Below, piece by piece: positions 12,016 to 32,712 of a stretch of DNA of 39,287 nucleotides. This DNA comes from Escherichia phage vB_EcoP_PAS61, in sequence record OQ921333.1; one strand, given 5' to 3'. How positions within the stretch are numbered: the first letter of the stretch is position 1; each line of letters starts with the position of its first letter. The position numbers were made by a program, and so were the translations under genes. Under the pieces are notes generated by a model that saw only the letters and a list, made by a program, of their open reading frames with translations, was not told the origin of the DNA and ran no database searches.

Positions 12016-12346
12016 ATCAGCAGCAGAGCGCAAAGCCGCTCAGAGAGCCAGACAAGCTGCATCTGGTGTGCGTAAGCTGGAAATTGTGCTTGATGCTCAG
12101 GAAATTGAAATGCTGGAGCGTAACTGTGCCACGCGTCGCCCCGGGCGTGCGCCTTACGAATTTGGTGAGTATATAGCGTTACTGATCCGCCAGGATGATG
12201 CACGCGTGCGCGGGCGTATAAAATCGATCAGCAGAAAATGTTGCGGTAAGTGCGGCGAGAGAGTTCCAGTTAATTCATGCCCGTGTAATGGTGACTCGCA
12301 ATGCTGGGTGACTAAAGGCTGGCATGAAACGAAATTAATAGTGTGA
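12008..12346 (+). CDS. Cys-rich zinc-finger protein immediately upstream of the late operon; candidate late-gene regulator/antiterminator (Q-like role)
   Basis: 112 aa; CCGKCGERVPVNSCPCNGDSQC cluster; stop codon overlaps the GTGACATGTCAC palindrome; followed by an intrinsic terminator and then the terminase genes. Confidence 0.45.
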   Translation: MAKSAAERKAAQRARQAASGVRKLEIVLDAQEIEMLERNCATRRPGRAPYEFGEYIALLIRQDDARVRGRIKSISRKCCGKCGERVPVNSCPCNGDSQCWVTKGWHETKLIV

Positions 12347-12395
12347 CATGTCACGAGTAGATTATGCATGATGAATTTGATGGGTTTTGAATACT

Positions 12396-12421
12396 GCCGC
12401 CAACTATGGCGGCTTTATTTT
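12396..12421 (+). terminator. Rho-independent terminator (GCCGCC-AACTAT-GGCGGC + TTTATTTT) between early-right and late genes (tR'-like position)
   Basis: Perfect 6-bp GC stem plus U-run. Confidence 0.6.
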
Positions 12422-12464
12422 GCATGGTACTATTACCACAACGGTAACTATTACCACGGTGGTT

Positions 12465-13061
12465 ATGATGCCTGCTGAACCTAAAACCTATAAACGCAAA
12501 TCAACGCAATTTAAGCCACTAACAGCAATGCAGGAGGCTTATTGCCAGTCATACATCAAAACGCCTGAAAACCAGACTCAGGCAGCGATTAACGCAGGGT
12601 TCTCCCCAAATACAGCGGCAGTTAAAGCCAGTGTCATGATGCGCGATGAACGCATTCAAAAACGGATTGCCGAGTTGATGGAGGAGCGCAACAAACGAAT
12701 GCGCGTCAGTGCTGATTACGTTCTCATGCGCCTGGTGGAGATCGACCAGATGGACGTGATCGACATCCTCAACGACGATGGGAGCCTTAAACCAATCCGT
12801 GAGTGGCCGAAAATCTGGCGCACTACGCTTAGTGGCTTTGATCTGTCATCGACCATCATGAACATGAACGAGGATTCGATAGAGACAATCCTCAAAAAAA
12901 TTAAATGGCCTGACAAGGTGAAGAACCTTGAGCTGATTGGTAAGCATGTTGATGTCAACGCGTTCAAAGAACGTCTGGATGTTAATGTGAATGTGACAAT
13001 TGCTGATCGCATAGCAGCAGCCAGGAAGCGACTCAAAGAACGTCAGGATGGTAATCAGTGA
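12465..13061 (+). CDS. Terminase small subunit
   Basis: Position immediately upstream of and translationally coupled to terminase large subunit; basic N-terminal region; start moved to ATG after the terminator. Confidence 0.65.
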   Translation: MMPAEPKTYKRKSTQFKPLTAMQEAYCQSYIKTPENQTQAAINAGFSPNTAAVKASVMMRDERIQKRIAELMEERNKRMRVSADYVLMRLVEIDQMDVIDILNDDGSLKPIREWPKIWRTTLSGFDLSSTIMNMNEDSIETILKKIKWPDKVKNLELIGKHVDVNAFKERLDVNVNVTIADRIAAARKRLKERQDGNQ

Positions 13062-14533
13062 CAGATACAGCGTTATCTCCTGAAGAGCAGTTGATCGAGG
13101 ATATTGCAGGGTTCACTCACGATCCGCTTGGCTATGCCCTCTATGCGTTCCCGTGGGGGGAAGAGGGGACTGAACTGGCACATGCTACCGGCCCACGTCA
13201 GTGGCAGGCTGATGCGTTCCGAGAGATACGTGATCACCTGCAGAATCCAGAGACGCGCTATCAGCCGCTTATGCTGGCACGCGCTTCTGGTCACGGTATT
13301 GGTAAATCCGCATTCATCTCAATGCTGATCAACTGGGGCATGTCCACTTGCGAGGATTGTAAGGTCGTGGTGACCGCCAACACCGACAACCAGCTACGAA
13401 CGAAGACCTGGCCGGAAATTATCAAGTGGTCGAACCTTGCTATCACGAAAGACTGGTTTACCTGTACCGCTACCGCGATGTACAGCAATGATCCTGGGCA
13501 CGACAAGCGGTGGCGAGCTGACGCAATCCCCTGGTCTGAGCACAACACTGAGGCATTCGCCGGACTACACAACGAGCGCAAACGCATCATCGTGGTATTC
13601 GATGAAGCGTCGAACATTGCGGATCTGGTGTGGGAAGTTGCTGAGGGGGCGCTAACGGACGAAGACACTGAGATTATCTGGGTGGCGTTCGGAAACCCTA
13701 CACGTAACACCGGGCGTTTCCGCGAATGTTTCCGCAAATATAAACACCGCTGGAAAACTGCGCAGATTGACAGCCGGACGGTGGAAGGCACTAACAAACA
13801 GCAGTTGCAGAAATGGGTTGATGACTACGGGGAAGACAGCGACTTCGTTAAAATCCGTGTGCGCGGCATATTCCCTGATGCATCTGAATTGCAGTTTATC
13901 CCTACCGGTCTTACTGATGAGGCAATGAAACGGGTGGTAACCGCTGCGCAGGTTGCACATGCTCCGGTGATAATCGGCGTTGACCCGGCATACTCAGGCG
14001 TTGATGACGCGGTGATATACCTGCGGCAGGGGCTGCACAGTAAGGTGCTATGGACTGGTAACAAGACCACCGACGATCTGATTATGGCGAAGCGTATCGC
14101 TGACTTTGAAGACCAGTATCAGGCTGACGCGGTGTTCATCGACTTCGGTTACGGAACCGGTTTGAAGTCAATCGGTGATGGCTGGGGACGTACATGGCAA
14201 CTTGTTCCGTTCGGCGGTGCGTCCACTGACCCGCAGATGCTTAACAAGCGTGGGGAGATGTTCAACTCATGTAAGACATGGCTGAGGCTGGGCGGCATGC
14301 TGGATGACCAGGAAACTGCAGACGACCTGTCAGCGGCAGAGTACAAAGTTCGTGTGGACGGTAAAATCGTTATCGAACCGAAGGAAGATATCAAGGAGCG
14401 GCTTGGGCGTTCGCCGGGTAAAGGCGATGCGCTACTGCTGACGTTTGCTTTCCCTGTGTCGAAGCGTCTGCGAATTCCTGGGCAGCAGAACCAGCAAGGC
14501 AAGGCCATCACAGATTATGACCCGTATGCTTAA
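13058..14533 (+). CDS. Terminase large subunit
   Basis: 491 aa; Walker A-like ARASGHGIGKS; GTG start overlapping terS stop. Confidence 0.9.
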   Translation: MTDTALSPEEQLIEDIAGFTHDPLGYALYAFPWGEEGTELAHATGPRQWQADAFREIRDHLQNPETRYQPLMLARASGHGIGKSAFISMLINWGMSTCEDCKVVVTANTDNQLRTKTWPEIIKWSNLAITKDWFTCTATAMYSNDPGHDKRWRADAIPWSEHNTEAFAGLHNERKRIIVVFDEASNIADLVWEVAEGALTDEDTEIIWVAFGNPTRNTGRFRECFRKYKHRWKTAQIDSRTVEGTNKQQLQKWVDDYGEDSDFVKIRVRGIFPDASELQFIPTGLTDEAMKRVVTAAQVAHAPVIIGVDPAYSGVDDAVIYLRQGLHSKVLWTGNKTTDDLIMAKRIADFEDQYQADAVFIDFGYGTGLKSIGDGWGRTWQLVPFGGASTDPQMLNKRGEMFNSCKTWLRLGGMLDDQETADDLSAAEYKVRVDGKIVIEPKEDIKERLGRSPGKGDALLLTFAFPVSKRLRIPGQQNQQGKAITDYDPYA

Positions 14534-14584
14534 TCCGCTGGTGGGGATAATGTCGTTGATATCCTCTGATGAGGATAAAACAAA

Positions 14585-14610
14585 GCCAGCTCATCGGCTG
14601 GCTGTTTGTG
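14585..14610. terminator. Bidirectional terminator-like hairpin (GCCAGC-TCATCG-GCTGGC) with U-rich flanks, between terminase large subunit and the antisense moron
   Basis: Stem-loop read directly; adjacent to GTGACATGTCAC palindrome at 14608-14619. Confidence 0.45.
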
Positions 14611-14623
14611 ACATGTCACGGTG

Positions 14624-15046
14624 TTAGAAGGTTATTTTATCGAATGCGGCGTTGATTGCCTTGGCGTCCTGCTCAGCACCAACCACATCAAGTAAAGATC
14701 TTTTACTAAGCACTTCAGCCAGGCATTGTAACTTCATGTTGTATAAGTTTTCGCGCATGTAATCATCATCACTTTTTTCTTTGGCGTATACAGCGCGAGA
14801 AATATCAAACACATTGCCTTTTTCCATTTCAGTTTTCTGCGCTGAAATCCAGTCATGGCAAGTAACTCCTATTCCATGGTCATCGCTAAGCGTTAACCCG
14901 GCAAGTCGCTCACCTGGAATTGCTTCATAAAGCATTTCATTTCCTGCAAAAACACCATAAAAAATTGAGTCATCACCCTGAACAATGCGTACATATTTGC
15001 ACGGCCATTCATTTAGATATTTAGCTAGCATGTCGGCTGTTTTCAT
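14624..15046 (-). CDS. Moron gene of unknown function (antisense to the late operon)
   Basis: 140 aa ORF with balanced composition on the opposite strand between terminase and portal, downstream of a tRNA and an intrinsic terminator. Confidence 0.55.
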   Translation of the reverse strand: MKTADMLAKYLNEWPCKYVRIVQGDDSIFYGVFAGNEMLYEAIPGERLAGLTLSDDHGIGVTCHDWISAQKTEMEKGNVFDISRAVYAKEKSDDDYMRENLYNMKLQCLAEVLSKRSLLDVVGAEQDAKAINAAFDKITF

Positions 15047-15056
15047 GATCTCACTT

Positions 15057-15081
15057 TAAAAAAATGCCCGGCGAACCGGGC
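15057..15081 (-). terminator. Rho-independent terminator (GCCCGG-CGAA-CCGGGC followed by U7 on the minus strand) downstream of the tRNA
   Basis: Perfect stem with 7-nt U-run on minus strand. Confidence 0.55.
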
Positions 15082-15211
15082 TGTACTGGTTTACAGCATG
15101 AAGTCATCGCAATGGCGTCCTGCTGTAAAAAGGGCGGTGATAGTTCTTCAAGGGAAACCATCACCGCCAAGCCCCTGGAACTTCTGGCATCACGGTCCTT
15201 AGGCGTGATTC

Positions 15212-15288
15212 TGGCGTGGCATGCAGGATTCGAACCTGCGACCAACCGCTTAGAAGGCGGTTGCTCTGTCCGACTGAGCTAATGCCAC
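15212..15288 (-). tRNA. tRNA-Arg (anticodon UCU), phage-encoded
   Basis: Hand-folded cloverleaf: acceptor GTGGCAT/ATGCCAC, D-stem GCTC/GAGC, anticodon stem ACCGC/GCGGT with loop CTTCTAA, T-arm GCAGG-TTCGAAT-CCTGC, discriminator G and encoded CCA. Confidence 0.85.
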
Positions 15289-15610
15289 AACGCTGAGAGC
15301 ACTTAGCCTGTTAAGGCGCCACACTTTGTCGCGGCTCCATAAATGCTCTCATCGTTGTACCCTCGTCTCTTCCGAGGCGTCACACCGAATCGCCGGGATG
15401 GTGAATCCCCGTGCGCGGAATAAAACCGCTCGACTTGCACATTCCGGCTACCTGGTTCGTTTGCCCGAGCAAGGGAGGGTGCCCCTTAAACGTATCCAGA
15501 CCGCTATCGGCGCATGTGCCATACGCCGTACTGCTCAAAATAAAAGCTCACTCCACCTGTTTAATTTAACGACAAGCCAGTCAGGTTAGTAACCAGAATG
15601 AGCTCTTTAG

Positions 15611-15677
15611 TTACCTGAAAGGTAATAATTCACGCGTTAAATGTCAACCTTCTACGATAAATAAATCATATGTGGTT
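15611..15677. promoter_or_regulatory. Regulatory region upstream of the portal module: TTACCTGAAAGGTAA (15611-15625), TTGACA on minus strand (15647-15642), CATATGTGGTT (15667-15677)
   Basis: Motifs read directly. Confidence 0.4.
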
Positions 15678-15715
15678 AAATTGGTAATAATTTAATTGCG
15701 TACGGAGTCATTGAT

Positions 15716-15922
15716 ATGTGCATGGGTAGCTCACCATCAGTGCCTGCAACACCAGAAGTTCAGGCAGCACCACAGGAGCAGGATGCCGCCGTTGTTGATG
15801 CCCGCGACGAAGAAACACGTCGCCGTCGCGCTGCTGCTGGTCGTAGTTCTACGCTGCTTACCGGTTCTCAGGGCGACACATCAACCGCTAATACCAGCGG
15901 TAAAACGCTGCTTGGTCAGTAA
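15716..15922 (+). CDS. Small Ala/Gly/Thr-rich hypothetical protein upstream of portal
   Basis: 68 aa; RBS context GGAGTCATTGAtATG nearly identical to that of the portal gene. Confidence 0.45.
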   Translation: MCMGSSPSVPATPEVQAAPQEQDAAVVDARDEETRRRRAAAGRSSTLLTGSQGDTSTANTSGKTLLGQ

Positions 15923-15936
15923 CCGGAGTCATTGAA

Positions 15937-18144
15937 ATGGCGGAAACAACTAAAGAGCGATTGAACAAACAGTTCGCACAACTTGAAAGCGAGCGTCAGT
16001 CGTTCGAGCCGCACTGGCGCGAGTTGAGTGATTACATCAACCCGCGTGGTTCCCGCTTTCTGACTTCTGAGGTCAACCGTAACGATCGACGCAATACACG
16101 CATTATTGATTCGACCGGGACTATGGCGGCGCGCACTCTCGCCAGCGGCATGATGTCAGGCATCACAAGCCCTGCGCGTCCGTGGTTTCGCCTGGCTACG
16201 CCAGATCCTGAAATGATGGATTATGGTCCTGTTAAGTTGTGGCTCGAGGCGGTGCAGAACCGCATGAACGATATGTTCAATAAGTCGAATCTCTACCAGT
16301 CTCTTCCGCAGTTATACGGAAGCCTCGGCACATACAGCACTGGTGCAATGGCGGTGCTGGAGGATGACGAGGACATCATTCGCACAATGCCATTCCCGAT
16401 AGGCAGTTACTACCTGGCTAACTCACCTCGTGGCAGTGTGGACACCTGTTTTCGCAAGTTCTCTATGACTGTTCGTCAGCTTGTTCAGGAGTTCGGGCTA
16501 AATAACGTCAGCGAATCCGTAAAAAGCATGTGGGAAAGCGGCACCTACGAGAAGTGGATTGACGTGATGCATTCGGTTTACCCGAACATTGACCGCGATA
16601 CATTGAAGCTGGATAGCAAGAACAAGCCATTCAAATCGGTTTATTACGAGGTTGGTGGCGATAACGACAAGTTGTTGCGTGAGTCCGGATTCACAAGCCC
16701 TGCGCGTCCGTGGTTTCGCCTGGCTACGCCAGATCCTGAAATGATGGATTATGGTCCTGTTAAGTTGTGGCTCGAGGCGGTGCAGAACCGCATGAACGAT
16801 ATGTTCAATAAGTCGAATCTCTACCAGTCTCTTCCGCAGTTATACGGAAGCCTCGGCACATACAGCACTGGTGCAATGGCGGTGCTGGAGGATGACGAGG
16901 ACATCATTCGCACAATGCCATTCCCGATAGGCAGTTACTACCTGGCTAACTCACCTCGTGGCAGTGTGGACACCTGTTTTCGCAAGTTCTCTATGACTGT
17001 TCGTCAGCTTGTTCAGGAGTTCGGGCTAAATAACGTCAGCGAATCCGTAAAAAGCATGTGGGAAAGCGGCACCTACGAGAAGTGGATTGACGTGATGCAT
17101 TCGGTTTACCCGAACATTGACCGCGATACATTGAAGCTGGATAGCAAGAACAAGCCATTCAAATCGGTTTATTACGAGGTTGGTGGCGATAACGACAAGT
17201 TGTTGCGTGAGTCCGGATTTGATGAGTTTCCAATTATGGCTCCGCGCTGGGAAGTTAATGGCGAAGATGTTTATGGATCATCATGCCCGGGTATGCTGGC
17301 GCTTGGACCTGTTAAGGCATTGCAGCTTCTCCAGAAGCGCAAGTCGCAGTTGATTGATAAAGCCACCAATCCGCCGATGGTTGCTCCGACTTCCCTCAAG
17401 AATCAGCGCGCCTCCCTTCTTCCTGGCGACATCACGTATATCGATCAGATTACTGGTCAGGATGGTTTCAGGCCTGCTTATCTGGTTAACCCCAGTACAG
17501 CAGATCTGGTAGCAGACATTCAGGACACTCGTCAAATCATTAACAGCGCCTACTTTGTCGATCTGTTCATGATGTTGCAGAACATCAATACCCGCTCGAT
17601 GCCTGTTGAAGCGGTGATCGAAATGAAAGAAGAAAAACTTCTGATGTTGGGGCCGGTTCTGGAGCGTCTGAACGACGAATGTCTTAACCCTCTCATTGAC
17701 CGCGCTTTCTCGATGATGGTGCGTAAAAACATGCTGCCGCCACCGCCTGACGCGATGGAAGGTATGCCCCTGAAGGTCGAATACATTTCCGTCATGGCTC
17801 AGGCGCAGAAGTCTATCGGCCTGTCCAGTCTGGCGTCCACGGTTAACTTCATTGGTCAACTTGCGCAAGCGAAACCAGAAGCTCTCGACAAACTCAACGT
17901 TGATCAGGCGATCGATGCATTCGCTGATATGTCCGGAGTGTCTCCAACCGTCATTGTTCCGCAGGAACAGGTTGAGCAGGCTCGCCAGCAACGGGCACAG
18001 CAACAACAGCAGCAACAAATGATGGCGATGGGGATGGCGGCGGCACAGGGTGCCAAGACGCTAAGCGAAGCTAAAACTTCGGATCCGAGTGTTTTGTCAG
18101 CTATGGCGAATGCAGTTAGTGGTCAGGGTGGGCAATCACAATGA
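15937..18144 (+). CDS. Portal (head-to-tail connector) protein, T7 gp8-like, carrying an internal in-frame 176-codon tandem duplication
   Basis: 735 aa; Gln-rich C-terminus recalls T7 gp8; position after terminase; internal duplicated segment TSPARPWF...LLRESGF. Confidence 0.8.
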   Translation: MAETTKERLNKQFAQLESERQSFEPHWRELSDYINPRGSRFLTSEVNRNDRRNTRIIDSTGTMAARTLASGMMSGITSPARPWFRLATPDPEMMDYGPVKLWLEAVQNRMNDMFNKSNLYQSLPQLYGSLGTYSTGAMAVLEDDEDIIRTMPFPIGSYYLANSPRGSVDTCFRKFSMTVRQLVQEFGLNNVSESVKSMWESGTYEKWIDVMHSVYPNIDRDTLKLDSKNKPFKSVYYEVGGDNDKLLRESGFTSPARPWFRLATPDPEMMDYGPVKLWLEAVQNRMNDMFNKSNLYQSLPQLYGSLGTYSTGAMAVLEDDEDIIRTMPFPIGSYYLANSPRGSVDTCFRKFSMTVRQLVQEFGLNNVSESVKSMWESGTYEKWIDVMHSVYPNIDRDTLKLDSKNKPFKSVYYEVGGDNDKLLRESGFDEFPIMAPRWEVNGEDVYGSSCPGMLALGPVKALQLLQKRKSQLIDKATNPPMVAPTSLKNQRASLLPGDITYIDQITGQDGFRPAYLVNPSTADLVADIQDTRQIINSAYFVDLFMMLQNINTRSMPVEAVIEMKEEKLLMLGPVLERLNDECLNPLIDRAFSMMVRKNMLPPPPDAMEGMPLKVEYISVMAQAQKSIGLSSLASTVNFIGQLAQAKPEALDKLNVDQAIDAFADMSGVSPTVIVPQEQVEQARQQRAQQQQQQQMMAMGMAAAQGAKTLSEAKTSDPSVLSAMANAVSGQGGQSQ
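16163..17218 (+). repeat. Perfect tandem direct duplication, 2 x 528 bp (16163-16690 and 16691-17218), inside the portal gene
   Basis: Nucleotide-level identity read across both copies; the ORF-track translation repeats the same 176 aa. Confidence 0.9.
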
Positions 18145-18437
18145 CAGATTACGAAGACGATCAACTGAAAGAAGAAAACGCCCGTAAGCAACGTGACATG
18201 GCACAGCGTGAAATTGATGACATTCGCTTTGTCATGAGCAGTGAACAGGGGCGTCGCGTTGTCTGGTCGGTGCTGGAGAAAGGCCGTGTGTTTTCCGCTA
18301 TCTCACCGATGGACGCTATGGCAATGGCATTTAATGAGGGGCAACGCAATCTGGCGCTGGAACTGTTTCAGCGCGTTATGGCGCATTGCCCTGAACAGTA
18401 TTTGAAGATGGCCAAAGAGGCCAGTGAACAGGAGTGA
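18141..18437 (+). CDS. Hypothetical protein (between portal and scaffold)
   Basis: 98 aa ORF; ATGA overlap with portal stop. Confidence 0.5.
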   Translation: MTDYEDDQLKEENARKQRDMAQREIDDIRFVMSSEQGRRVVWSVLEKGRVFSAISPMDAMAMAFNEGQRNLALELFQRVMAHCPEQYLKMAKEASEQE

Positions 18438-18439
18438 TC

Positions 18440-19135
18440 ATGAATTTATTTGAGCGTTTGCTGTATAGCCGTCTTTGCAATGAGCAACCAGTCGATGGTG
18501 GAGCAGCTCCGGCTGCGTCAGAACCGTCAGCGCCTGCAGGTGATAACCCTGCTCCAGTTGGTGATCCATCACAACAGGAAGGTGATAAGCGACAACCTGT
18601 TGCTGATGGCGATAAACCTGCTGATGACAAAAAGCCTGAAAACGATAAGCAGGATGAAAAAAAGGACGGCGATAAACCAGAGGGTGCGCCTGAGAAGTAC
18701 GAGTTTCAGGCTGCCGAAGGCGTAGAGCTGGATACAGAAGCGTTGAAGGAATTCGAGCCGGTGGCGCGAGAACTTAACCTGACCAACGAGCAAGCGCAAA
18801 AGCTGGTTGATGCTTATCCGAAGATTCTGGCAGGTGTTCAGCAGCGCCAGGCAGAAGCCTGGCAGAAAACAACCGAGCAGTGGGCTGCGGATGTAAAAGC
18901 TGACAAAGAAATCGGTGGCGACAAGTTGATTTCTAACCTTAGCGCCGCACAGCGTGCGCTTGACCAGTTCGGGACACCTGAACTCAAAGAATATCTGAAC
19001 ACCACCGGGCTGGGTAATCACCCTGATCTGGTCAAAACGTTCGTGAAAATCGGAAAGGCGATGTCTGAAGATGGCATGGTCACCGGTGGTAATGAAGGCC
19101 AGCGTAGTGCGGCCGAAGTGCTCTATGGCAAATAA
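18440..19135 (+). CDS. Scaffolding protein (putative)
   Basis: Acidic low-complexity N-terminal half (D/E/K/P-rich), position immediately upstream of major capsid gene. Confidence 0.6.
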   Translation: MNLFERLLYSRLCNEQPVDGGAAPAASEPSAPAGDNPAPVGDPSQQEGDKRQPVADGDKPADDKKPENDKQDEKKDGDKPEGAPEKYEFQAAEGVELDTEALKEFEPVARELNLTNEQAQKLVDAYPKILAGVQQRQAEAWQKTTEQWAADVKADKEIGGDKLISNLSAAQRALDQFGTPELKEYLNTTGLGNHPDLVKTFVKIGKAMSEDGMVTGGNEGQRSAAEVLYGK

Positions 19136-19143
19136 GAGAGGAA

Positions 19144-20136
19144 ATGACAATGTCTGTTAAAGGCTTAACTGCGCTAACGCTGGCTGACTGGGGTAAGCGC
19201 GTCGATCCAAACGGGAAAGTCGATAAGATTATCGAGCTTCTCGGTCAAACTAACCCGATCCTTCAGGATATGCCTTTTGTCGAAGGGAACCTTCCTACCG
19301 GACACCGAACCACCATTCGTTCTGGTTTACCTTCAGCTACCTGGCGTTTGCTGAACTATGGCGTACAGCCAAGCAAATCAACCACAGTGCAGGTAACCGA
19401 TTCCGTGGGCATGCTGGAAACCTATGCTGAAGTCGATAAGTCACTGGCTGATCTGAACGGCAATACCGCCGAATTCCGCCTGTCTGAAGACCGCGCATTT
19501 ATTGAAGCGATGAATCAGCAGATGGCGCAGACGCTGTTTTATGGTGATTCCAGCGTTAACCCTCAGCAGTTTATGGGACTGTCCTCCCGCTATTCCAGCC
19601 TGTCTGCGGGTAATGCTCAGAACATCATTGATGCTGGTGGCACGGGTACAGATAACACCTCAATCTGGTTAGTGGTGTGGGGCGAAAACACCGTGCATGG
19701 CATCTTCCCGAAAGGGCAGAAGGCTGGCATCCAGATGGAAGATAAAGGCCAGGTGACACTGGAAGATGCTAATGGCGGCAAGTACGAAGGCTATCGCACC
19801 CATTACAAATGGGACAACGGACTTGCTCTGCGTGACTGGCGTTATGTTGTTCGCATTGCAAATATCGATGTCAGCAATCTTTCAGAACCTTCCTCTGCCG
19901 CAAATATTGCGAAGTTGATGGTTAAAGCACTACATCGCATTCCAAACCGTGGCATGGGCCGCCCGGTGTTCTACATGAACCGCACTGTAGGCCAGGCTCT
20001 TGATCTGCAGTCTCTGGAGAAAACATCTCTGGCTATCAGCGTAAAAGAGACTGAAGGCGAGTGGTGGACTTCATTCCGTGGTGTACCAATCCGTGAAACT
20101 GATGCGCTTCTGGAAACAGAAGCCCGCGTGGTGTAA
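19144..20136 (+). CDS. Major capsid protein
   Basis: 330 aa; position after scaffold; strong RBS; followed by stem-loop. Confidence 0.8.
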   Translation: MTMSVKGLTALTLADWGKRVDPNGKVDKIIELLGQTNPILQDMPFVEGNLPTGHRTTIRSGLPSATWRLLNYGVQPSKSTTVQVTDSVGMLETYAEVDKSLADLNGNTAEFRLSEDRAFIEAMNQQMAQTLFYGDSSVNPQQFMGLSSRYSSLSAGNAQNIIDAGGTGTDNTSIWLVVWGENTVHGIFPKGQKAGIQMEDKGQVTLEDANGGKYEGYRTHYKWDNGLALRDWRYVVRIANIDVSNLSEPSSAANIAKLMVKALHRIPNRGMGRPVFYMNRTVGQALDLQSLEKTSLAISVKETEGEWWTSFRGVPIRETDALLETEARVV

Positions 20137-20187
20137 CGCCTGTTATTAACCTGTGGGTCGTAACAGACCCACTAATGGAGAAAGAAG

Positions 20188-20625
20188 ATGATCACCGACA
20201 AACTGTTGATGTTCTCCGAAGCTCAGGCGGTTACGAATACCGCGGCTTCTACTGACGTAATCGATCTCGGTCCAATTGACGGAAAACGTCGTGATATCGG
20301 CGTGGGTTACCCGCTTGAGTTTTGGGCGCTGGTTAACACAGCCGCCGCGGCAAGCGGTGATGCAACTGTAAACATCCAGTTGCAGACGAGTGAGAATAAC
20401 AGCTCATGGACCACTATTTATGATAGTGGCGCACTGGCAAAGACCGCCCTGACAGCAGGTAAACGAGTTGTTTCTGCAAAGGTGCCTGCCGGTGTTCAGC
20501 GATATCTGCGTGTTAACTACTCCGTCGCAACTGGCCCACTAACGGCTGGCGAATTCACTGCGGGTATCAGTCTTGATGTTGATGCCAATACGCCGTATCC
20601 GATCCGCTCAAAAGTAACTGGTTAA
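20188..20625 (+). CDS. Hypothetical virion protein (possible capsid decoration/staple protein by position)
   Basis: 145 aa ORF directly downstream of the capsid gene. Confidence 0.45.
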   Translation: MITDKLLMFSEAQAVTNTAASTDVIDLGPIDGKRRDIGVGYPLEFWALVNTAAAASGDATVNIQLQTSENNSSWTTIYDSGALAKTALTAGKRVVSAKVPAGVQRYLRVNYSVATGPLTAGEFTAGISLDVDANTPYPIRSKVTG

Positions 20626-20635
20626 GGTGATATCG

Positions 20636-20971
20636 ATGTCAGGTGAGAAACCAAGATACCGCGTTCTGCGCCTCTCTCATATCCATAACACGCTGTGGCC
20701 GGAGGGGGCAGAAATCGAATACGAAGGTGAGCCTGGTAGCGCACTGGAACCTGTTAACGATGCGGCCAGACAGGCAAAAGCAAAAGTTGCAGGAAAGGTG
20801 TCAATGGCAGCAACCAGCACCAAAATCATCAACGATGTGTCAGATGATGGTGAACTGGATAAGCTCCGTGAAGAGTACGAATTGCTCTTTAACGAGAAGC
20901 CACACCATAACGCCAAAGCCGAAACGCTCCGCGAGAAGATCGCAGATAAGCGTAAAGAACTGGGCGTGTAA
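20636..20971 (+). CDS. Hypothetical protein
   Basis: ORF with ATG 8 nt after AAGG; followed by intrinsic terminator. Confidence 0.5.
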   Translation: MSGEKPRYRVLRLSHIHNTLWPEGAEIEYEGEPGSALEPVNDAARQAKAKVAGKVSMAATSTKIINDVSDDGELDKLREEYELLFNEKPHHNAKAETLREKIADKRKELGV

Positions 20972-20988
20972 GCCTCGCGGATCAGACA

Positions 20989-21010
20989 AGGGGCTTCGGC
21001 CCCTTTATTG
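20989..21010 (+). terminator. Rho-independent terminator inside the late region (GGGGC-TTCG-GCCCC + TTTATTG)
   Basis: Perfect GC stem with UUCG tetraloop and U-run. Confidence 0.6.
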
Positions 21011-21021
21011 CAGGAGTGTAT

Positions 21022-24421: not shown

Positions 24422-24885
24422 TGATCGATGTTCGAATTATTCCCGCTACCGAAGAGCATCTTCAGATGATTTTGCCGGATGTTCGTCAGGCTGATATTGA
24501 CGAACTGTATGCGGTATCGCTGATGACTACCGAAGATGCGCTGCGTGTTGGTCTGCGCACTGCGACTATGGCCTGGTCAGGGTTCGCGAACGGAGAACTG
24601 GTAACCATGTTTGGTGTATCTCCGGCGTCAATGATCGGTGGCAATGGTACACCCTGGCTGGTCGGAACCAGCCGTATTGAAAAATATCAGAAGACATTTC
24701 TTCGCCACTGCCGCCCTGTATTGCAGCAGATGCTGGCAGTTTATCCGCGCCTGGAAAACTACGTCGACGAGCGAAACCATGTTGCCAAAGCATGGCTGCA
24801 CTGGCTTGGATTCAGGCTTGAAGAAGCCGCGCCTTATGGTGCTCTTGGTCTTAATTTCCACAGATTTCACATGGAGAGAAAATAA
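24421..24885 (+). CDS. Internal virion protein (small)
   Basis: 154 aa; position between tail tube and large internal proteins; ATGA overlap. Confidence 0.45.
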   Translation: MIDVRIIPATEEHLQMILPDVRQADIDELYAVSLMTTEDALRVGLRTATMAWSGFANGELVTMFGVSPASMIGGNGTPWLVGTSRIEKYQKTFLRHCRPVLQQMLAVYPRLENYVDERNHVAKAWLHWLGFRLEEAAPYGALGLNFHRFHMERK

Positions 24886-25430
24886 TGTGCGATCCGGTTA
24901 TTGCTGGTGGCGCAATGCTCGCCATGAGTGGCATTCAGGCATACACCCAGTACCAACAGGGAAAGTATGCCTCGAAGGTTGCAGAAGCGAACGCAGATAT
25001 AGCCACTGCTCAGGCAAATGATGCAATAAACAGAGGTAACGCTGAAGCTGAGCAACGGCGCAGAGAGACCCGACAGCGGCTTGGTACACAGGCGGCGACA
25101 ATGGGGGCGACCGGCGCTGATTTATCTACCGGTAACGCGCTGGATATATTTGGCGACACTGCCCAGTTTGGCGCTCTTGATTCGCTAACGACGGTGAATA
25201 ACGCGCAACGCGAGGCTTACGGTTATCAGGTTCAGGCTGCCAACTATAAAGCAGAAGCCAGTTCAGCCCGTAAACAGGGGAATGTGGGAGCAGCAACAAC
25301 ATTGCTCACTGCGCCTCTGAAGGCATACGGTGCGTACCAGATGTTTGGTGGGACGTGGAGTCCGTTTACTCAAAGCACTCCTGCGCCAATCGGGGCAGCA
25401 GCAGGAACCAGATTACCCGGAGGATTATAA
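24885..25430 (+). CDS. Internal virion protein (Ala/Gly/Gln-rich)
   Basis: 181 aa; translationally coupled both sides. Confidence 0.45.
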
Positions 25431-28237
25431 TGCCAGTCGTACCAACAGTATCCGGACGTCAGGTTGAGAGCCGTGGAGTTCAGTCAGCAGGCTTGCAGAC
25501 GTTTTCTCAGCCAGGTATTGGTGATGCTTTTGTTCGGGCAGGGGCAGAGGCTATTGATGTTTTTGGTCAGGCAAAACAGCGTGCCAATATCGCTCTGGCT
25601 CAGGAGGCATCTCTTAACCTCAGTCAGATAAGCAGCGATCTGCTGAATAACCCTGAAACAGGTTTGCTTAACCTGAAAGGGAAAAATGCTATTGGAAAAG
25701 GTCAGGAGTATACGCAGCAGTTTGATGCTCAGGTCGAACAACTGGCTATGTCGCTGCCGGATGAACAGGCTCGTAATGCTTTCATGCAGCAGGCGCAGCA
25801 GCAGCGCATTCAGTTCACTACGCAGGCCGGGCGGCACGAGATAGGGCAAATCAATGCCTACGAAGAAGGACAGTTTCAGGCGACGCTGCTGAACAATGGT
25901 AAAAATGCCGCAGCATTGTATGGCGACAACGCCGCATACGTATTGGCTAATAAGCAAACTTTCCAGCAAATTGAGGATTACGGCATTGCACATGGCTGGA
26001 GCGACGAGCAAATCCAGGCCAAGAAAATCGAGTTTAAAGAGAAGGTTGCTGATGCTGCATTGTCCCAGTGGTCGGCAAACAATGCGATCTCATTTATCCA
26101 AAGTAATGGCGAGTTAAGCGATACTGCTGCTGGATCAAAGCGGGCTATTGTTAATCCTTATGGCGGAGAGCCAAAGTCCACAAAGGGAATGGTTGTTCAA
26201 GGAAATATTAATCTCTTCAACCGCCCATCTGTCAAAAATGAAGATGGGACTATCAGTACCGTTCGAACAATTTCTATAGGCACAGAAGCTGGAGAAGTTC
26301 TCATTCCCACCGTCAGTGATGATGGAAAATTGCTTTCCGATGACGAAGCTATTGCTCTGTATGAAAAAACTGGAAAACACCTTGGAATATTCGATAACCC
26401 TGAGAATGCGACCGCCTATGCTGAGAAACTTCACGAACAGCAGGATCAGTATTACGTAAAAGGTGGTGCTCGCGGTATCCGTAATAACAACCCTGGAAAT
26501 CTCGAATACAGCAAAACTAATCCGTGGGTAGGCCAGACCGGTGATGATGGTCGATTTGCTAAATTCGAAACACCTGAGCACGGGATTCGTGCATTAGGGC
26601 GTAACCTGATGTCGTATCAGCGGCAGGGTATCGATACCGTCAGCGAGATAATTAATCGCTGGGCACCGCCTACTGATAAAAATGACACTATGTCGTATAT
26701 CAAAGCAGTGTGCGAACAACTTGGCGTTTCTGCTGATGAGCCTCTCGATGCATCAAATCCTGATACCCTGAAGGCGCTTTGTGCAGCCATTATCCATCAT
26801 GAGAACGGTAGTCAGCCATACAGTGATCAGCAGTTAACTGCTGGTGTCAGTGCAGCACTTGGTTTATCAACAATTCCAACCAACACCAAACGCTATACCG
26901 GTAATGCAGCATTCGATGCGGCATCTCCTGAGGCTCAGGCAAGTTTTATGCGACAGGCGGATCAACTGCGTCGGCAGCAGCAGGCTGAATATAAAACGAT
27001 AATTGACAGCAAGGTTCGCGATGCGACGGCTGCGTATATGCGTGGCGTTGAATTTCCTAACCCACCTGGTGAGGCTGATTTTATTGCAGCTTATGGTGTC
27101 AGAGAAGGAAACCTGCGATATACCGAGTTTAAGAATACGCAGATCGCCGGACAGTATATAGGCTCTTTCCGCAACATGCCGACAAGCAGCATTACAGCAT
27201 ATGTTGAGCAATTACGCCCGGATACTGGTGAGACAGGGGAGGGTTATGCGGCACGAGCCGCTCTTTATGACAACGTTGTGTCGGCTGCAAGTCAGGTGAT
27301 AAAGCAGCGACAGGCTGATCCTGTACAGTTCTCTCTTGCCGCCGGACAGGCAAAGCCTATCGACATGAGCAATAAGGATAACTTTGGACAGAGCGTTGCC
27401 TTGCGTGCTGCTCAGGTCAGTGACCTTGCTAAGTCATATGGCACTCCACTGACGTTCTTTTCCAAAGACGAGGCCAATCAGATCGGTGTTTTCTTTCGTG
27501 ATGCGCCCGTTTCCCAACAGGCAGCATATCTCGATACCATCAGGCAGAGCACTGGTGGTGGGCAGGTGTATATGTCAGCACTACAGCAGATCAGTGCCAA
27601 CGCTCCATCTGCTGCCGTTGCCGGGATACTGATGGATAAGCCAGGTGGTATTTTGGCAGAAAAAAACTGGTTTAATCCGGATGTTTCCGTGTCTCCAGAA
27701 ACCGCTGCGCAGACAATTCTTGCTGGCGCGGCGGCTCGTAAAGGTACTGATGACGCGAAAGGTATTCCGATGCCTAAAGATGCTGATCTTCGCCTTGAGT
27801 TTTCTGACATGGTGAAGGATGCATTTGCTGGTGATGCTCAGGGGGCATCAATGGCATACGAGATCGCAAAGGACTATTACGCTGGTGTGATGGCGAAAAA
27901 AGGCGTGGTATCAGGCGAAATTGACAATGATATCTGGAAACAGGCTGTTAACGTAGCTACAGGTGGCGTGCATGACTATAACGGAATGGGGAATGTTCTT
28001 TTGCCGTGGGGAATGTCTGCAGAGCAATTCGATAAGCAGGTTAATCAGGCTTGGAATGAACAAGTTGTTGGCACAGGGATAAAAACACCGCCTGGTCAGT
28101 ATGGTTTGCAAAGTTACGGCGATAGTCAGTACCTGGTGAAACTTGGTACTGGTTATCTGCTAAAAGATGATGGTTCTCCCGTTGTTCTTGATCTGACACA
28201 GAAGCGTCAGAGATTCTCCGGAGATATTCCGCAATGA
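25430..28237 (+). CDS. Large internal virion/ejection protein, possibly with a cell-wall-degrading domain
   Basis: 935 aa; central conserved-looking block [15 protein letters not shown]...[14 protein letters not shown]; start set at ATG overlapping upstream stop with GGAGGA RBS. Confidence 0.6.
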
Positions 28238-30036
28238 GTTACTTTGGCCTTAATCCAGTAAACCAGAATCAGCAGCTTGACGAAGCAGCATCAAATCCAG
28301 TTGGCTTTAACAGCGATGTTGGTTTTTTCGACAATGCTGTAGGAGCGGCATTGTCTGGTTTGTACTCCGGGCTGGTGGCAAAGCCAGATCAGTTTCTATG
28401 GGCAGGGATGGATAAAATCGTATCCCCGATTGCTCAGCTTGTTAACGAAAACACCTCGCTCAATGACACTTCAGTTTCATACATTGCTGAGCAGAGAAAA
28501 CTAGCAGAGCAGCAGGTTAAGCGGCTGACGCCTGATGCCGCGACAACCGGAACCGCCGGGCAGGTCCTTTATGGGTTGTTCGATATGGGCGGGCAGGCTG
28601 TTGTCGGTACAACGCTCGGTGGTCCTGTCGGAGGTGCTGCGGCGGTAACTTCTCTACAGGGTTTTTCTGAGTTTGAACGGTTGACAGCACAGGGTGTTGA
28701 TTTCAGGACGGCGCAGGAAGCGGGATTAGTGCAGGGTATTACTGCTGGTGCCGGAACACTGATCCCTATGAGCCTCGGGTTACGTGCTGGTGGTGCGCTG
28801 GCGGAAGGTGTGGCGGCTCAGCTTGCGCGGACGGGTGAAAGTTCAGTGCGACGCGCCGCAGCAACAGCAGTACGTGCAACGCCAGATATTGCCTATGCCG
28901 CAGGTACAAATATTGCGTTCGGTATGGCACAGCGTGGGCTTACTGCAAAAACGCTTCGTGATGGTGGCTATAGCGAAATGGCTAACCAGTATGATGTGTT
29001 GGATCGACAGGCAATTGCTATTGATGCTGTTCTTGGGGTGGCGTTTGGTGGTGTCGGCAGATTTATTAACTCTCGCGGCGAGTCTACAAGCGCACCAAAT
29101 TTTTCACCAGTTGATATTGATGCTGCACTGGCGGCGAATGCCGCTCATCATGCTGAAATTGATATTGCTCCCGGCGTTCCGATCAACGTGCTTTCGCGTA
29201 ATTCGCACATTCAGGCTCTGCGAAAAGCCATGTCTGATGTTAGCCAGGGGAGACCTGTAGACGTTGCCAGCATTGTTGAGTCTGCATCTTTCAGTGAAAT
29301 TCCTGGGCGCAAGAGTCTGCTGTCTCAGGCAGTTAATGAGGCTCTGTCATCTGTAGATGATGGAGTAACGGCGCGCGCTATAGAAAATCGGTTGCTTGAA
29401 GAACAGGCCGCGCAGCTTTTGTCGCGTGGCGATAGACAGGTTTACCAGTCTGAAATCGCTAATAGCCAACGAATTATTGAAAATCTCACTGAACAGCGCG
29501 CACAAATTCTTGCAGAAGAGCCAACCGGTAGCGGTAAGGCTTTATCTCGTGCTCGATCAGATAAACAGGCCAGACTTCGCGATATTGACCAACGAATCCG
29601 GCAGGCACAAGAACGCCTGGAATTTTCTCGTAACGCGTTGGCGCCGCACGAGCCTGGAGGTCAGTTTTTTGAAGCTCGAGCAGAACTGGCACGACGACAG
29701 CAGGCAGAAAGTGAACTTAATGCTCAGGCTGTTTCATTCTATAAAACAGCAGAGGTCAGGACGCCAGACGAAGTAGCTCCTTTTGAGCCCGGTAAGATAT
29801 TGCAACAGACAGAACAAAAAATGATGGCAGATCCGGCAGGAGATATTGATCTGCGTATAGCTGAAGACTCGCTGCTTGAATCTCCGGACATGATAATCAC
29901 CGTGCTGGATGATGATGGTAATCCACAATCGCGCAGTGCGCGTGAAGTACTGGATGAAGCGAACAGGGAAAGTGAGCAGGCAATACAGGATTCCAGCCTG
30001 TTTGATGTCGCTGTGGCGTGTTTCTTGAGAGGTTAA
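28234..30036 (+). CDS. Internal virion/ejection protein
   Basis: 600 aa; Ala/Gly-rich with predicted hydrophobic stretches; gene order. Confidence 0.55.
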
Positions 30037-30041
30037 ATTAA

Positions 30042-32516
30042 ATGAGACAGGAATGTATACAAGCGGTCCAGCAGGCGGCGCAGCGCACGTTAACGGCGCG
30101 AGAAATACAGAACATTGAAGACCGCATTTATCGAAATATGCGCTCCATTGCTCGTGATGACCCGATGTCGTGGAGACAACTTTCCGAATCAGAGCGGCTA
30201 TATCGTGCAGCACAATTGGCATCTGAAGAATTACAGCGAGAAGCGGCATTAAAGAAACGTCGTGTGGCCCTCACTATAGCCGCACGTCAGAGATTGGATA
30301 AATTTATCAATAGCTATCAAGGGGCTGATGGGAAACTTGGCGCTCTTAACCGTACTATTGCTTTTAATGCAGACGGTAAATCGAATTTCCTCTCTGTTGA
30401 GTCCAGAACAAAAGCCACTCGTGATTATGCATTGAGTCAATTGCAGGAGGCATTCGAAGCAGTTGATCCTCGCTTTTTTGTTCTGTTTGAAGATGAAGCG
30501 GGCGTACGTGACCTGGTATATGAAATGCGAGGGCAAAATACTGGCAATGCTAAAGCAAGAAAAGGTGCTAAGGCGTGGAGAGAAGTGACAGATCTACTGC
30601 GCCGCCGGTTTAATGATGCTGGTGGGGACATTGGCTATCTCGAAAACTGGGGGATCCCTCAACATCATTCTATGGAAAAGGTTGGGGCGGTATCAAAGGA
30701 TAAGTGGGTTAGCGATGTTATAGGTAAGCTGGATCGCAAATATTATATCCGAGCCGATGGACAACTGATGAACGATGCCGAGTTGTCTGCATTTCTTGGA
30801 GAGGCTTATAACACGATCGCTACTGGTGGGCTGAATAAGCTTACTGATACCGGAATGCGAATTTCCGGCGCACGTGCTAACCGTGGTAATGCATCACGAC
30901 AGATACATTTCAAAGATGCAGATTCCTATCTGCAATATCAGCAACTTTATGGCGATCGCTCTCTATGGGAAATCATAGTCGGTCACCTGGAAGGTATCAG
31001 TAAAGATATTGCACTGGTGGAAACATATGGCCCAAACCCCGATCATGTTTTCCGCTCTCTTCTTGATCAGGTTAAGGCAGAAACGGCAACTGCTAACCAG
31101 AGTAAAACCGGTAAAGTCGAGCGGCTGGCGAACAACACAGAGAATCTGTACAACTTTATTTCCGGAAAGACACAGCCTGTAGCGAATCCGCACATCGCGC
31201 GATGGTCTGACAATATCCGCAACTGGCTGGTTGCCAGCAGACTCGGATCCGCGTTGCTGTCATCGTTCTCTGATCTTGGAACCATGTATCTGTCTGCGAA
31301 GGTTACCAACCTTCCAATGAACCAGTTATTCCGCAACCAGCTTGAAGCTATGGACCCAACGAACCGTACAGAACTTGCGCGGGCGCGCCGCGCTGGTCTG
31401 GCGATGGAATCTCTACTTGGCAGCGTTAACCGCTGGGCGATGGATAATATGGGGCCGTCAGTGTCTCGTTGGGCGGCAACGGCGGTAATGCGTGCCAGTG
31501 GGCTTACAGCATGGTCAGATGCGCACAAGCGCGCCTATGGCGTAACCATGATGGGAAGCCTGGGAGAAGTAGTGTCACGGACACCAGACCTTCGTAGCCT
31601 CGATGACTCTGATTTTCGTATCCTGAAAAGCAAAGGGATTACTGACACAGACTGGAGCGTATGGAAGTTGGCGCAACAGGAGGACTGGGGGAACGGTAAT
31701 AATACGATGCTGACACCGGAAAGCATTATGCGTATCCCTGATTCAGCAGTTAAACATCTTGGTGAGCCTGAACGCGTGAAATTTGAGGCAATGCGTAAAC
31801 TGCTCGGTGCCGTAACTGAAGAAGTTGATATGGCTGTTATTACACCGGGAGCACGTGAGCAACTGATAACCGGTTCTGGTATTCAGCGTGGAACATGGAA
31901 AGGTGAATTAACGAGAAGTGTTTTCCTGTTTAAATCGTTCCCTATCTCGGTTGTTATGCGTCACTGGTCACGCGCTATGGGTATGCCGTCTGCTGGTGGG
32001 CGTGCGGCATATATTGCGACGTTTATTGCCAGTACGACCATTCTTGGCGCTTTGTCGCAGCAACTTAACGACCTTGCGTCTGGTCGTAATCCTCGAGAGA
32101 TGACAGGAGAAGATGCCGCAAAATTCTGGCTTGGTGCTCTACTGAAAGGTGGTGGTCTTGGCCTTTACGGTGACTTTTTATTGTCAGATCACACTAGGTA
32201 CGGAAGCGGCGCGCTGGCATCGATGCTTGGCCCGGTAGCTGGTCTGGTTGATGACGTAGTGAAGATTGCTCAGGGCATACCGTTAAATGCTGTGGAAGGG
32301 AAGAATGAGCAGACTGGTGGTGATCTGGTTAAGCTGGGGAAAGGTCTGATGCCAGGTGCGAATCTCTGGTACTTAAAGGCGGCTCTCGATCACATGATCT
32401 TTAACCAGATGCAGGAGTATTTTTCACCAGGTTATTTGCGTAAAATGGAGCAACGTTCGAAGAAAGAGTTTAACCAGACATACTGGTGGCGACCACAGGA
32501 TGTCACTCCGCAATAA
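30042..32516 (+). CDS. Internal virion/DNA-ejection protein
   Basis: 824 aa; last gene of the injection block, followed by terminator. Confidence 0.55.
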   Translation: MRQECIQAVQQAAQRTLTAREIQNIEDRIYRNMRSIARDDPMSWRQLSESERLYRAAQLASEELQREAALKKRRVALTIAARQRLDKFINSYQGADGKLGALNRTIAFNADGKSNFLSVESRTKATRDYALSQLQEAFEAVDPRFFVLFEDEAGVRDLVYEMRGQNTGNAKARKGAKAWREVTDLLRRRFNDAGGDIGYLENWGIPQHHSMEKVGAVSKDKWVSDVIGKLDRKYYIRADGQLMNDAELSAFLGEAYNTIATGGLNKLTDTGMRISGARANRGNASRQIHFKDADSYLQYQQLYGDRSLWEIIVGHLEGISKDIALVETYGPNPDHVFRSLLDQVKAETATANQSKTGKVERLANNTENLYNFISGKTQPVANPHIARWSDNIRNWLVASRLGSALLSSFSDLGTMYLSAKVTNLPMNQLFRNQLEAMDPTNRTELARARRAGLAMESLLGSVNRWAMDNMGPSVSRWAATAVMRASGLTAWSDAHKRAYGVTMMGSLGEVVSRTPDLRSLDDSDFRILKSKGITDTDWSVWKLAQQEDWGNGNNTMLTPESIMRIPDSAVKHLGEPERVKFEAMRKLLGAVTEEVDMAVITPGAREQLITGSGIQRGTWKGELTRSVFLFKSFPISVVMRHWSRAMGMPSAGGRAAYIATFIASTTILGALSQQLNDLASGRNPREMTGEDAAKFWLGALLKGGGLGLYGDFLLSDHTRYGSGALASMLGPVAGLVDDVVKIAQGIPLNAVEGKNEQTGGDLVKLGKGLMPGANLWYLKAALDHMIFNQMQEYFSPGYLRKMEQRSKKEFNQTYWWRPQDVTPQ

Positions 32517-32525
32517 GGATGAGAA

Positions 32526-32666
32526 ATGATTGCTTTTATTCTTGTTGTGTTTGCGCTTGTTGCACTTGGCGTTATGAACCGTAAATGTATCATTGACGAT
32601 GGCGAATTTGCTGTTGCAGTTATTTTGATATTATCTGGTGTAGCAGGGTACATAGGCTTGTCATAA
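32526..32666 (+). CDS. Small hydrophobic membrane peptide (46 aa)
   Basis: Hand translation MIAFILVVFALVALGVMNRKCIIDDGEFAVAVILILSGVAGYIGLS; AAGGA RBS 6 nt upstream; below ORF-track cutoff. Confidence 0.4.
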   Translation: MIAFILVVFALVALGVMNRKCIIDDGEFAVAVILILSGVAGYIGLS

Positions 32667-32686
32667 CGTGAGCGTGACATGTCACA

Positions 32687-32712
32687 GGCCGCTTTCGCGG
32701 CCTTTAAATTTA
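32687..32712 (+). terminator. Rho-independent terminator (GGCCGC-TTTC-GCGGCC + U-rich tail) ending the injection operon
   Basis: Perfect 6-bp GC stem plus U-run; GTGACATGTCAC palindrome directly upstream. Confidence 0.6.

Follow-up and report, generated by a model that had tools for sequence, protein, structure and literature searches.

Ribbon-helix-helix (RHH) proteins, among them the repressors Arc, Mnt, CopG and MetJ and the antitoxins MazE, ParD and TacA, pair a strand-helix-helix core with a short palindromic operator and are typically autorepressors. In Gram-positive phages, late regulators of the RinA, ArpU and Ltr family are encoded just upstream of terS, with the cognate site between the regulator gene and terS, and in lambda the small zinc-containing regulator Q is encoded immediately upstream of the late (terminase) genes. 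In E. coli's Ter macrodomain, the RHH-core protein MatP has as its site matS, a 13-bp element GTGAC[AG]N[TC]GTCAC (PMC3116907, PMC3603311, PMC8669397), for example GTGACATTGTCAC, true copies of which prophages avoid (PMC3603311). Here we describe a locus that resembles each of these systems in part. In the DNA of Escherichia phage vB_EcoP_PAS61 (OQ921333.1; 39,287 nucleotides (nt), the whole of which we call the window), which by its sequence is a phiV10/epsilon15-like (Uetakevirus) prophage, the 12-bp palindrome GTGACATGTCAC occurs three times, once across the stop codon of a gene (12008-12346) whose product is predicted to combine an RHH core with a zinc knuckle. We propose that the palindrome is the operator of this protein and acts where transcription units meet, a reading to which, taken as a whole, we give a probability of about 0.5.

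The locus departs from every one of its described counterparts. As in the RHH repressors, the protein has a predicted strand-helix-helix core, the putative operator is a short palindrome, and copies lie beside the regulator's own gene, suggesting autoregulation; unlike them, it carries an extra arginine-rich N-terminal helix and a C-terminal Cys4 zinc knuckle, its candidate primary operator overlaps a stop codon rather than a promoter, and further candidate operators lie beside terminators. With RinA, ArpU and Ltr it shares a gene directly before terS and a site between that gene and terS, but the proteins are unrelated, site 1 is not followed by an evident promoter, and other lineages carry the gene elsewhere than next to terS. 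The likeness to the lambda Q module is again one of gene order, since a small zinc-containing regulator (12008-12346) is followed by the palindrome (12343-12354), a terminator (12396-12421) and terS (from 12468); this order is found in the present lineage only and not in ZF40, N15 or P2-like phages. Around the site, unlike that of Q, neither a promoter nor a pause element is conserved (the one promoter-like match overlapping site 1 is weak, at 9/12), extra sites lie at operon ends, and the family coexists with a true Q in N15. No Q-lambda, Q21 or Q82 family was found in Pfam, PHROG, PDB sequence or fold searches. The MatP/matS system shares with the locus identical GTGAC/GTCAC half-sites, an RHH core (modelled here), few dispersed sites per replicon and the same host clades; the phage protein differs in being phage-encoded with one site on its own stop codon, and in being modelled with one N-terminal helix and a zinc knuckle rather than a four-helix bundle and coiled coil.

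Three exact copies of a palindrome and their conservation

A search of the whole window finds GTGACATGTCAC exactly three times in all:

12008-12346, plus strand: gene for a 112-residue protein (PHROG 536) with a predicted RHH core and a Cys4 zinc knuckle, last gene of the early-right/nin-like block
12343-12354: palindrome copy 1 (GTGACATGTCAC), overlapping the regulator's stop codon
14608-14619: palindrome copy 2, between a hairpin and the stop of an antisense cargo gene
32674-32685: palindrome copy 3, after the last gene of the virion operon and abutting a terminator

A sequence-only reading of this DNA had judged the threefold repeat to be far from chance, and it is: 100 dinucleotide-preserving shuffles yielded zero copies (expectation 0.00), and the relaxed form GTGACNNGTCAC has three matches against 0.03 expected. 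A 14-mer, TGTGACATGTCACG, is common to all three copies, on the plus strand at sites 1 and 2 and on the minus strand at site 3. One further copy with a single mismatch, at 18193, lies within a coding region, does not occur in epsilon15 and is probably due to chance. Across phages, the motif generalises to GTGAC-N2-GTCAC.

The palindrome is real and conserved. In epsilon15 and Tyrion, which are ~80% identical to the window over the terminase genes, all three copies are exact and in the same positions while their flanks have diverged, and copies 2 and 3 are exact in phiV10. Among 80 related loci from IMG/VR, 79 of which include copy 1, this copy is exact in 75 and carries one substitution in each of the other four. 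In 56 of the 80 loci, copy 1 is followed ~2.2-4.4 kb downstream by a second GTGAC-N2-GTCAC (55 with GTGACATGTCAC, one with GTGACGTGTCAC), and nine further loci have one uncompensated substitution at the copy 2 position. Copy 3 is kept in phiV10, epsilon15, Tyrion, TL-2011b, BUCT711 and BUCT554. Absence of the palindrome from homologous positions in relatives, which the sequence-only reading had named as telling against a function, is therefore not what epsilon15, Tyrion and the IMG/VR loci display.

The same comparison bears on the idea that the palindrome is a recombination or mosaic-junction sequence, or a mobile terminator cassette, marking the places where cargo genes are swapped. Homology between relatives does stop no more than a few bases from sites 2 and 3; in the IMG/VR relatives, at least seven different antisense genes have their ends directly after copy 2, and in TL-2011b, where copy 3 follows an inserted ant gene, the left flank differs all the way to site 3. 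Islands of conserved function set among variable cargo would, however, give this pattern passively, no recombinase travels with the palindrome, and 12-14 bp is too short for a tyrosine-recombinase core, the known examples being longer. The idea also leaves the stop-codon-linked copy and the promoter-side sites described below unexplained, and we consider it very improbable.

Several other identities were tried and rejected. A packaging site or genome end (pac/cos) is rejected on the number of copies, three, and on the carriers, which include both cos and headful phages; the phiV10 record begins at window position 12347, within copy 1, at the base after the last gene's stop codon. As a promoter -35 element (GTGACA) the site gives one weak 9/12 match only, at site 1, with hairpins abutting sites 2 and 3, and a comparison of 24 lineages found no -10-like element at a constant distance from the site. 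The operator-like motif of the prophage repressor is a different sequence, ATTACC-N5-GGTAAT.

The site travels with the regulator gene

The sequence-only reading had suspected a tie between the palindrome and the zinc-finger gene at 12008-12346, and the linkage of gene and site across unrelated phages bears this out. In ~24 of 33 non-redundant homologues, the site lies at or within ~10 nt of the homologue's stop (in one exception, L140, it lies 30 nt inside the open reading frame), and the homologues come from Uetakevirus, N15, P2-like, lambdoid and Vibrio phage-plasmid lineages. In the window, the TGA stop of the regulator (12344-12346) falls inside copy 1, and the same offset of -4, at which the stop codon supplies positions 2-4 of the site, recurs in N15, the Yersinia P2-like phage, Vibrio and other lineages. 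With its TGA stop contributing to the site, the gene forms one inherited module with its primary site. Carrier genomes hold 1-4 copies, usually 2-3, against ~0.03 expected. Representative carriers outside the Uetakeviruses are:

ZF40 (Pectobacterium myovirus): TGTGACATGTCACA, 3 copies, one lying 2 nt past the homologue's stop
N15: CGTGACTGGTCACG, 3 copies, one across the stop of gp46
Yersinia P2-like phage: GTGACGCGTCAC, on the homologue's stop
Vibrio K233: 3 copies, none at the homologue's stop
Vibrio L092 and L093: 2 copies each, one at the homologue's stop
Aeromonas phage: GTGACCGGACAC, 3 copies, one just before the gene

The test also works in reverse: when the 14-mer alone was used to retrieve 80 IMG/VR chunks (~9 kb each), the regulator was encoded on 21 of them, as a rule abutting the site. 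VP882, a related phage-plasmid with a Q protein, has neither gene nor site, and no relatives of the Aeromonas phage were found in IMG/VR. ZF40 and N15 have additional sites inside early operons, and in some lineages xis-int follows the regulator gene. The regulator and its stop-codon-linked site are hence best read, from these sequence comparisons, as a module of many temperate phages of Enterobacterales, Vibrio and Aeromonas. The literature searched mentions the 12-mer nowhere, and searches of it found no description of the protein-site pair, which is present in many unrelated temperate phages.

This linkage weighs against a host factor (MatP, SlmA, CRP or another) as the binder, with the nearness to the phage gene incidental. 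The consensus of the SlmA site is GTGAGTACTCAC, and the palindrome departs from it at positions 5-8 (CATG versus GTAC), that is, at 4 of 12 positions, for which the SlmA site was rejected as its identity. The outer 4 bp are shared with the SlmA site (PMC3116907), and the palindrome resembles the 13-bp matS, but the spacer is 2 bp rather than 3, and for CRP (TGTGA-N6-TCACA) the spacing is N4 rather than N6, in agreement with the earlier dismissal of a CRP site. A host protein would not occupy the stop codon of one phage gene in five unrelated lineages, nor would its site vanish together with that gene, as in VP882; such a binder is most improbable.

Some carriers show further arrangements. In two IMG/VR loci (L130, ~1300-1420; L169, ~10800-10870), full and half sites (CATGTCAC, TGTGACAT, GTGAC) cluster within 60-80 bp, suggesting cooperative multi-dimer operators in some lineages. 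One N15 site (L008, 28490-28561) lies ~25 bp upstream of a sigma-70-like TTGACG-N18-TAGAGT, picked by eye, and ~110 nt upstream of a terminator annotated ahead of genes 32-30; these we take to be the antirepressor region under small-RNA control. In the Vibrio phage-plasmids L092 (39250-39335) and L093 (23980-24068), the second site lies between iteron-like repeats (AGCACGAAAGCACGAAA, beside ParA) and a bidirectional terminator.

The regulator protein

The product of 12008-12346 is predicted to have an N-terminal beta-strand followed by two helices, the arrangement expected of an RHH protein, and a fold search with the model returned the RHH superfamily as its best structural matches. A conserved arginine-rich N-terminal helix precedes this core and a C-terminal Cys4 zinc knuckle follows it. 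No Pfam or NCBIfam model reaches threshold on the window protein; PF10723 (RepB-RCR_reg) is a precomputed match on three Vibrio homologues, and a direct scan with it found just one member (E=0.034). The C-terminal half resembles the DksA/TraR C4 zinc-finger proteins in its layout of long helix, CxxCG, C and helix, which aligns weakly with the TraR and YbiI profiles (E=0.14-0.4), but the cysteine pattern differs from CxxC-x17-CxxC, the likeness to TraR was not recovered by the fold search, and there is no PF01258 match. The palindromic site co-occurs with the regulator gene, and we predict that it is bound by a dimer. On these grounds, GTGACATGTCAC is very probably the DNA site of the 12008-12346 protein.

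A probable DNA operator rather than an RNA element

Each copy is transcribed just before a terminator, the N-terminal helix of the regulator is arginine-rich, and a stem of 4-5 bp folds at sites 1 and 2, features that would suit an element acting in the RNA: a processing site, as the sequence-only reading had suggested, a 3'-end stabiliser, or a boxB-like target of the arginine-rich N-terminus. The pattern of variation is not that of an RNA stem. The half-sites are invariant across lineages, with no covariation, and the central 2 bp, the would-be loop, are free (AT, TG, CA, GC, AC, AG, GG, CC, CT); natural single-base variants of the palindrome are uncompensated; the Aeromonas form GTGACCGGACAC breaks the would-be stem in all three copies; and the short stem is missing from the minimum-energy fold at site 3. 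An Rfam scan found only a tRNA-Arg and no family matching the palindrome. Invariant half-sites, a free centre, uncompensated variants and a weak fold together argue for a double-stranded DNA operator and against an RNA hairpin. The processing hairpin is therefore unsupported, and an RNA-level element of any of these kinds is scarcely credible. An N/nut-type RNA antitermination site was rejected likewise, its 'stem' being invariant, its 'loop' variable and its fold marginal.

Terminators beside the sites

Terminators were called by a consensus scan and folding, with an energy-based scan for the wider set of contexts; a simple terminator finder missed the imperfect stems at site 2 of epsilon15 and Tyrion. 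In the window, each copy is accompanied by a GC-rich hairpin with a T-tract and is on the upstream side of it, so that an intrinsic terminator stands next to every copy, as the sequence-only reading had claimed; the folding energies of the three hairpins are -12.6, -12.9 and -13.2 kcal/mol:

12396-12421, plus strand: terminator 1 (GCCGCCAACTATGGCGGC followed by TTTATTTT), between the regulator gene and terS, -12.6 kcal/mol; hairpin 12396-12413 and T-tract, 41 nt past site 1
14574-14603, minus strand: hairpin 14584-14603 with a strong T-tract at 14574-14583, terminating the antisense cargo gene
32686-32712, plus strand: terminator 3 (AGGCCGCTTTCGCGGCCT followed by TTAAATTT), abutting copy 3, -13.2 kcal/mol; hairpin 32686-32703 and T-tract, shared with a convergent ant-like gene

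The order gene stop, palindrome, terminator, which had been stated for all three copies, holds at sites 1 and 3. At site 2, where the hairpin is 4 nt from the palindrome, it fails for terL and holds for the antisense gene (14624-15046): on the plus strand the terL stop is followed by the hairpin, with only a weak tail (GTTTGTG), and then by the palindrome. In Tyrion, the equivalent of site 2 follows an antisense gene and not terL, which supports the antisense-gene reading of the order at this site.

Beyond the window, the energy-based scan found the order palindrome, hairpin, T-tract in 19 of 89 independent non-redundant contexts, with a gap of 0-41 nt; clean terminators face the palindrome only if they are bidirectional, and unidirectional ones never do. 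The simple terminator finder gave no terminator near the sites in ZF40, N15 or the Aeromonas phage. The description of the palindrome as a terminator-coupled element is thus right in that the pairing recurs and too broad in that it is not universal.

Repressor, roadblock or relief of termination

In the reading that we favour, an RHH dimer would read the two GTGAC half-sites, 2 bp apart. Its primary operator would lie on the regulator's own stop, and two more at other junctions where transcription units meet, between terL and the antisense cargo gene and between the virion operon and the SOS-controlled ant-like gene. The bound dimer would act on RNA polymerase crossing these junctions, as a repressor or as a roadblock; having built up during early lytic growth, it would thereby limit its own expression and insulate or gate the three boundaries. 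In Uetakeviruses, the operators are best read as markers, beside terminators, of three places where one transcription unit borders another. We infer that binding hinders the polymerase instead of assisting it, and likewise the timing; repression or roadblock as the effect of the bound protein is close to an even bet, or slightly short of one.

Sites placed on the promoter side of the gene suggest this effect. Of the three sigma-70 matches that score best over 3 kb of the Aeromonas phage, two stop 14-16 nt short of a site, and one of this pair is positioned to drive the regulator gene, with the site between the match and the regulator's ribosome-binding site. A second lineage (L173) has a tandem pair of sites immediately upstream of the regulator's ribosome-binding site; the pair is preceded by an A/T-rich TATAAAT, taken by eye for a -10, where a consensus scan gave no promoter. 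Sites in this position in two lineages suggest a repressor or a roadblock.

A different effect at the same sites has to be weighed, namely a terminator-relief switch akin to that of lambda Q, in which the DNA-bound protein would be handed to RNA polymerase at the palindrome and read-through of the next terminator would follow. Such a switch would couple early transcription to terS and terL (site 1) and, at site 3, would link the genes for tail fibre and lysis to the virion operon. It would account for the palindrome-hairpin-T-tract order at the three sites and in the wider contexts, as well as for the position of the regulator directly upstream of terS with a terminator between them, and the weak likeness of its C-terminal half to RNA-polymerase-binding zinc-finger proteins would fit, although this likeness is not significant. 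At site 2, however, the direction is from the antisense cargo gene into antisense terL, which makes little sense for relief, the gap between palindrome and terminator ranges from 0 to 41 nt, and ZF40, N15 and the Aeromonas phage lack a nearby terminator. The sites upstream of the regulator's ribosome-binding site, once after a sigma-70-type match, resemble repressor operators. Furthermore, the family coexists with other late regulators: N15 has Q (gp40), P2-like phages have Ogr, and ZF40-like phages, in which nin-like genes follow the regulator, probably have Q by our reading of the sequence. These phages, together with the lineages in which xis-int follows the gene, led us to reject a universal late activator. 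A dedicated antitermination role, one of the functions put forward by the sequence-only reading, may exist but is not what this evidence points to, as carriers own Q or Ogr regulators, repressor-type positions occur in the Aeromonas phage and L173, and terminators are not universal; as an account of the three sites, including the couplings at sites 1 and 3, we regard the relief switch as unlikely.

The repressor or roadblock reading has difficulties of its own. At site 3, where a heavily transcribed late operon ends, a roadblock upstream of a strong terminator brings no obvious benefit. The constant order of palindrome, hairpin and T-tract is what a factor that must modify the polymerase before it meets the terminator would need, which favours the antitermination alternative; so do the lack of an annotated late activator or Q homologue in the phiV10 and epsilon15 records and the scant room for a promoter between terminator 1 and terS. 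The residues of the RHH beta-strand vary between lineages and the half-site does not, so recognition may rest on the N-terminal helix. In BUCT711 (L094, ~365-430) and BUCT554 (L095, ~8190-8258), a gene with a canonical LexA box (TACTGT-N8-ACAGTA), whose product appears from its sequence to be UmuD/S24-peptidase-like, stands between copy 1 and terS; an SOS-controlled gene in this position indicates that tight coupling of site 1 to its terminator is dispensable, a point that counts against terminator relief as well. Finally, the choice of this protein, and not another factor, as the binder we infer from co-occurrence. All of these points weigh against the reading proposed here.

Resemblance to matS

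The phage site is the consensus matS minus one central base (12 bp, with a spacer of 2 instead of 3), and the window contains no GTGACNNNGTCAC, even with 1 mismatch. An architectural element of the MatP kind would bridge sites into loops, tether phage DNA, or unload SMC (structural maintenance of chromosomes) complexes (MukBEF, Wadjet-type), with effects on transcription being secondary. All hosts of the module are Enterobacterales, Vibrio or Aeromonas, which are lineages with MatP, though this argument may reflect sampling. Several carriers are phage-plasmids (N15 and the Vibrio elements with a site beside the ParA/iteron region), and the avoidance of true 13-bp matS by prophages counts in favour as well, as does its absence from the window. 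An hhalign comparison with MatP aligned only the RHH (E=0.46, not significant), indicating that the similarity is structural only, and the model has neither the four-helix bundle nor the C-terminal coiled coil; membership of the MatP/matS system fails because of site length and domain architecture. Identity of a half-site with that of one of several hundred known regulators could be coincidence, and transcribed sites are a poor place for a stable architectural complex. We hold this explanation to be improbable.

Genome setting and neighbouring features

The genes and motifs around the three sites are:

12432-12466: two repressor operator-like motifs, ATTACC-N5-GGTAAT, directly before the terS start at 12468
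12468-13061, plus strand: terS
13058-14533, plus strand: terL
14624-15046, minus strand: antisense cargo gene (PHROG 4846, function unknown), whose transcript crosses copy 2 into the terminator
32526-32666, plus strand: gene for a 46-residue membrane protein (PHROG 7892), last gene of the ~17-kb virion operon
32710-32967, minus strand: convergent anti-repressor-like gene (PHROG 450/1760, C-terminal part), likely start 32967

The terS-terL block (12468-14533), identified by Pfam Terminase_2 and by the phiV10 and TL-2011b annotations, is bounded by copies 1 and 2. The phiV10 annotation (p21) calls the 46-residue protein a 'putative integral membrane protein'. Just upstream of the likely start of the ant-like gene, at 32987-33006, stands a near-perfect LexA (SOS) box, AACTGTATATTTATACAGTA, and the listed open reading frame 32710-33090 probably starts at an internal Met42.

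The motif ATTACC-N5-GGTAAT, whose homologue is annotated as a repressor binding site in epsilon15, is present in ten copies with 0-2 mismatches (237, 5729, 5791, 6503, 8834, 8896, 12432, 12450, 15610 and 33043), some in the immunity region and others immediately upstream of terS, the portal block and the tail-fibre gene; the prophage repressor may thus contact every late block directly. Another recurring motif, (T)ATGTGGTT(T), which before terS reads GGTGGTTAT, occurs at ~8880-8895, 15660-15680, 33088-33100 and 12457-12466, shortly before several gene starts and ~45 nt after the repressor-operator-like motifs, and may be a phage-specific promoter or translation signal.

A tRNA-Arg(TCT) gene (15212-15288, minus strand) lies among the variable antisense cargo that separates terL from the portal block, with minus-strand terminator-like hairpins nearby at 15168-15133 and 15081-15066. 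The G+C content falls to 0.385-0.43 over 33000-37000, against ~0.50 elsewhere, across two large genes (33163-35400 and 35496-37364) that by position form the tail-fibre region, consistent with a horizontally exchanged module.

Implications

If the operator reading holds, PHROG 536, a family of 'hypothetical protein' entries whose members number in the hundreds and are found in prophages of E. coli, Salmonella, Klebsiella, Yersinia, Vibrio and Aeromonas, gains a testable function and a precise DNA target. Phages of the phiV10/epsilon15 type, which find use as reporters and in typing for E. coli O157 and Salmonella, would have three control points, which could be disrupted by engineering close to terS, past terL or past the virion operon. 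The one-base difference from matS raises the question of cross-talk, or of deliberate avoidance, between phage regulators and the chromosome-organising machinery of the host. Bolder still, and in our estimate quite unlikely, is the idea that this RHH/zinc module, with its matS-like half-sites, is a counterpart or antagonist of MatP-MukBEF, bridging phage DNA or ejecting SMC complexes (MukBEF, Wadjet) from phage and phage-plasmid DNA, or else represents a new class of DNA-tethered protein that gates intrinsic terminators at operon boundaries. Were the protein indeed to modulate termination, it would offer a new route to the control of operon boundaries.

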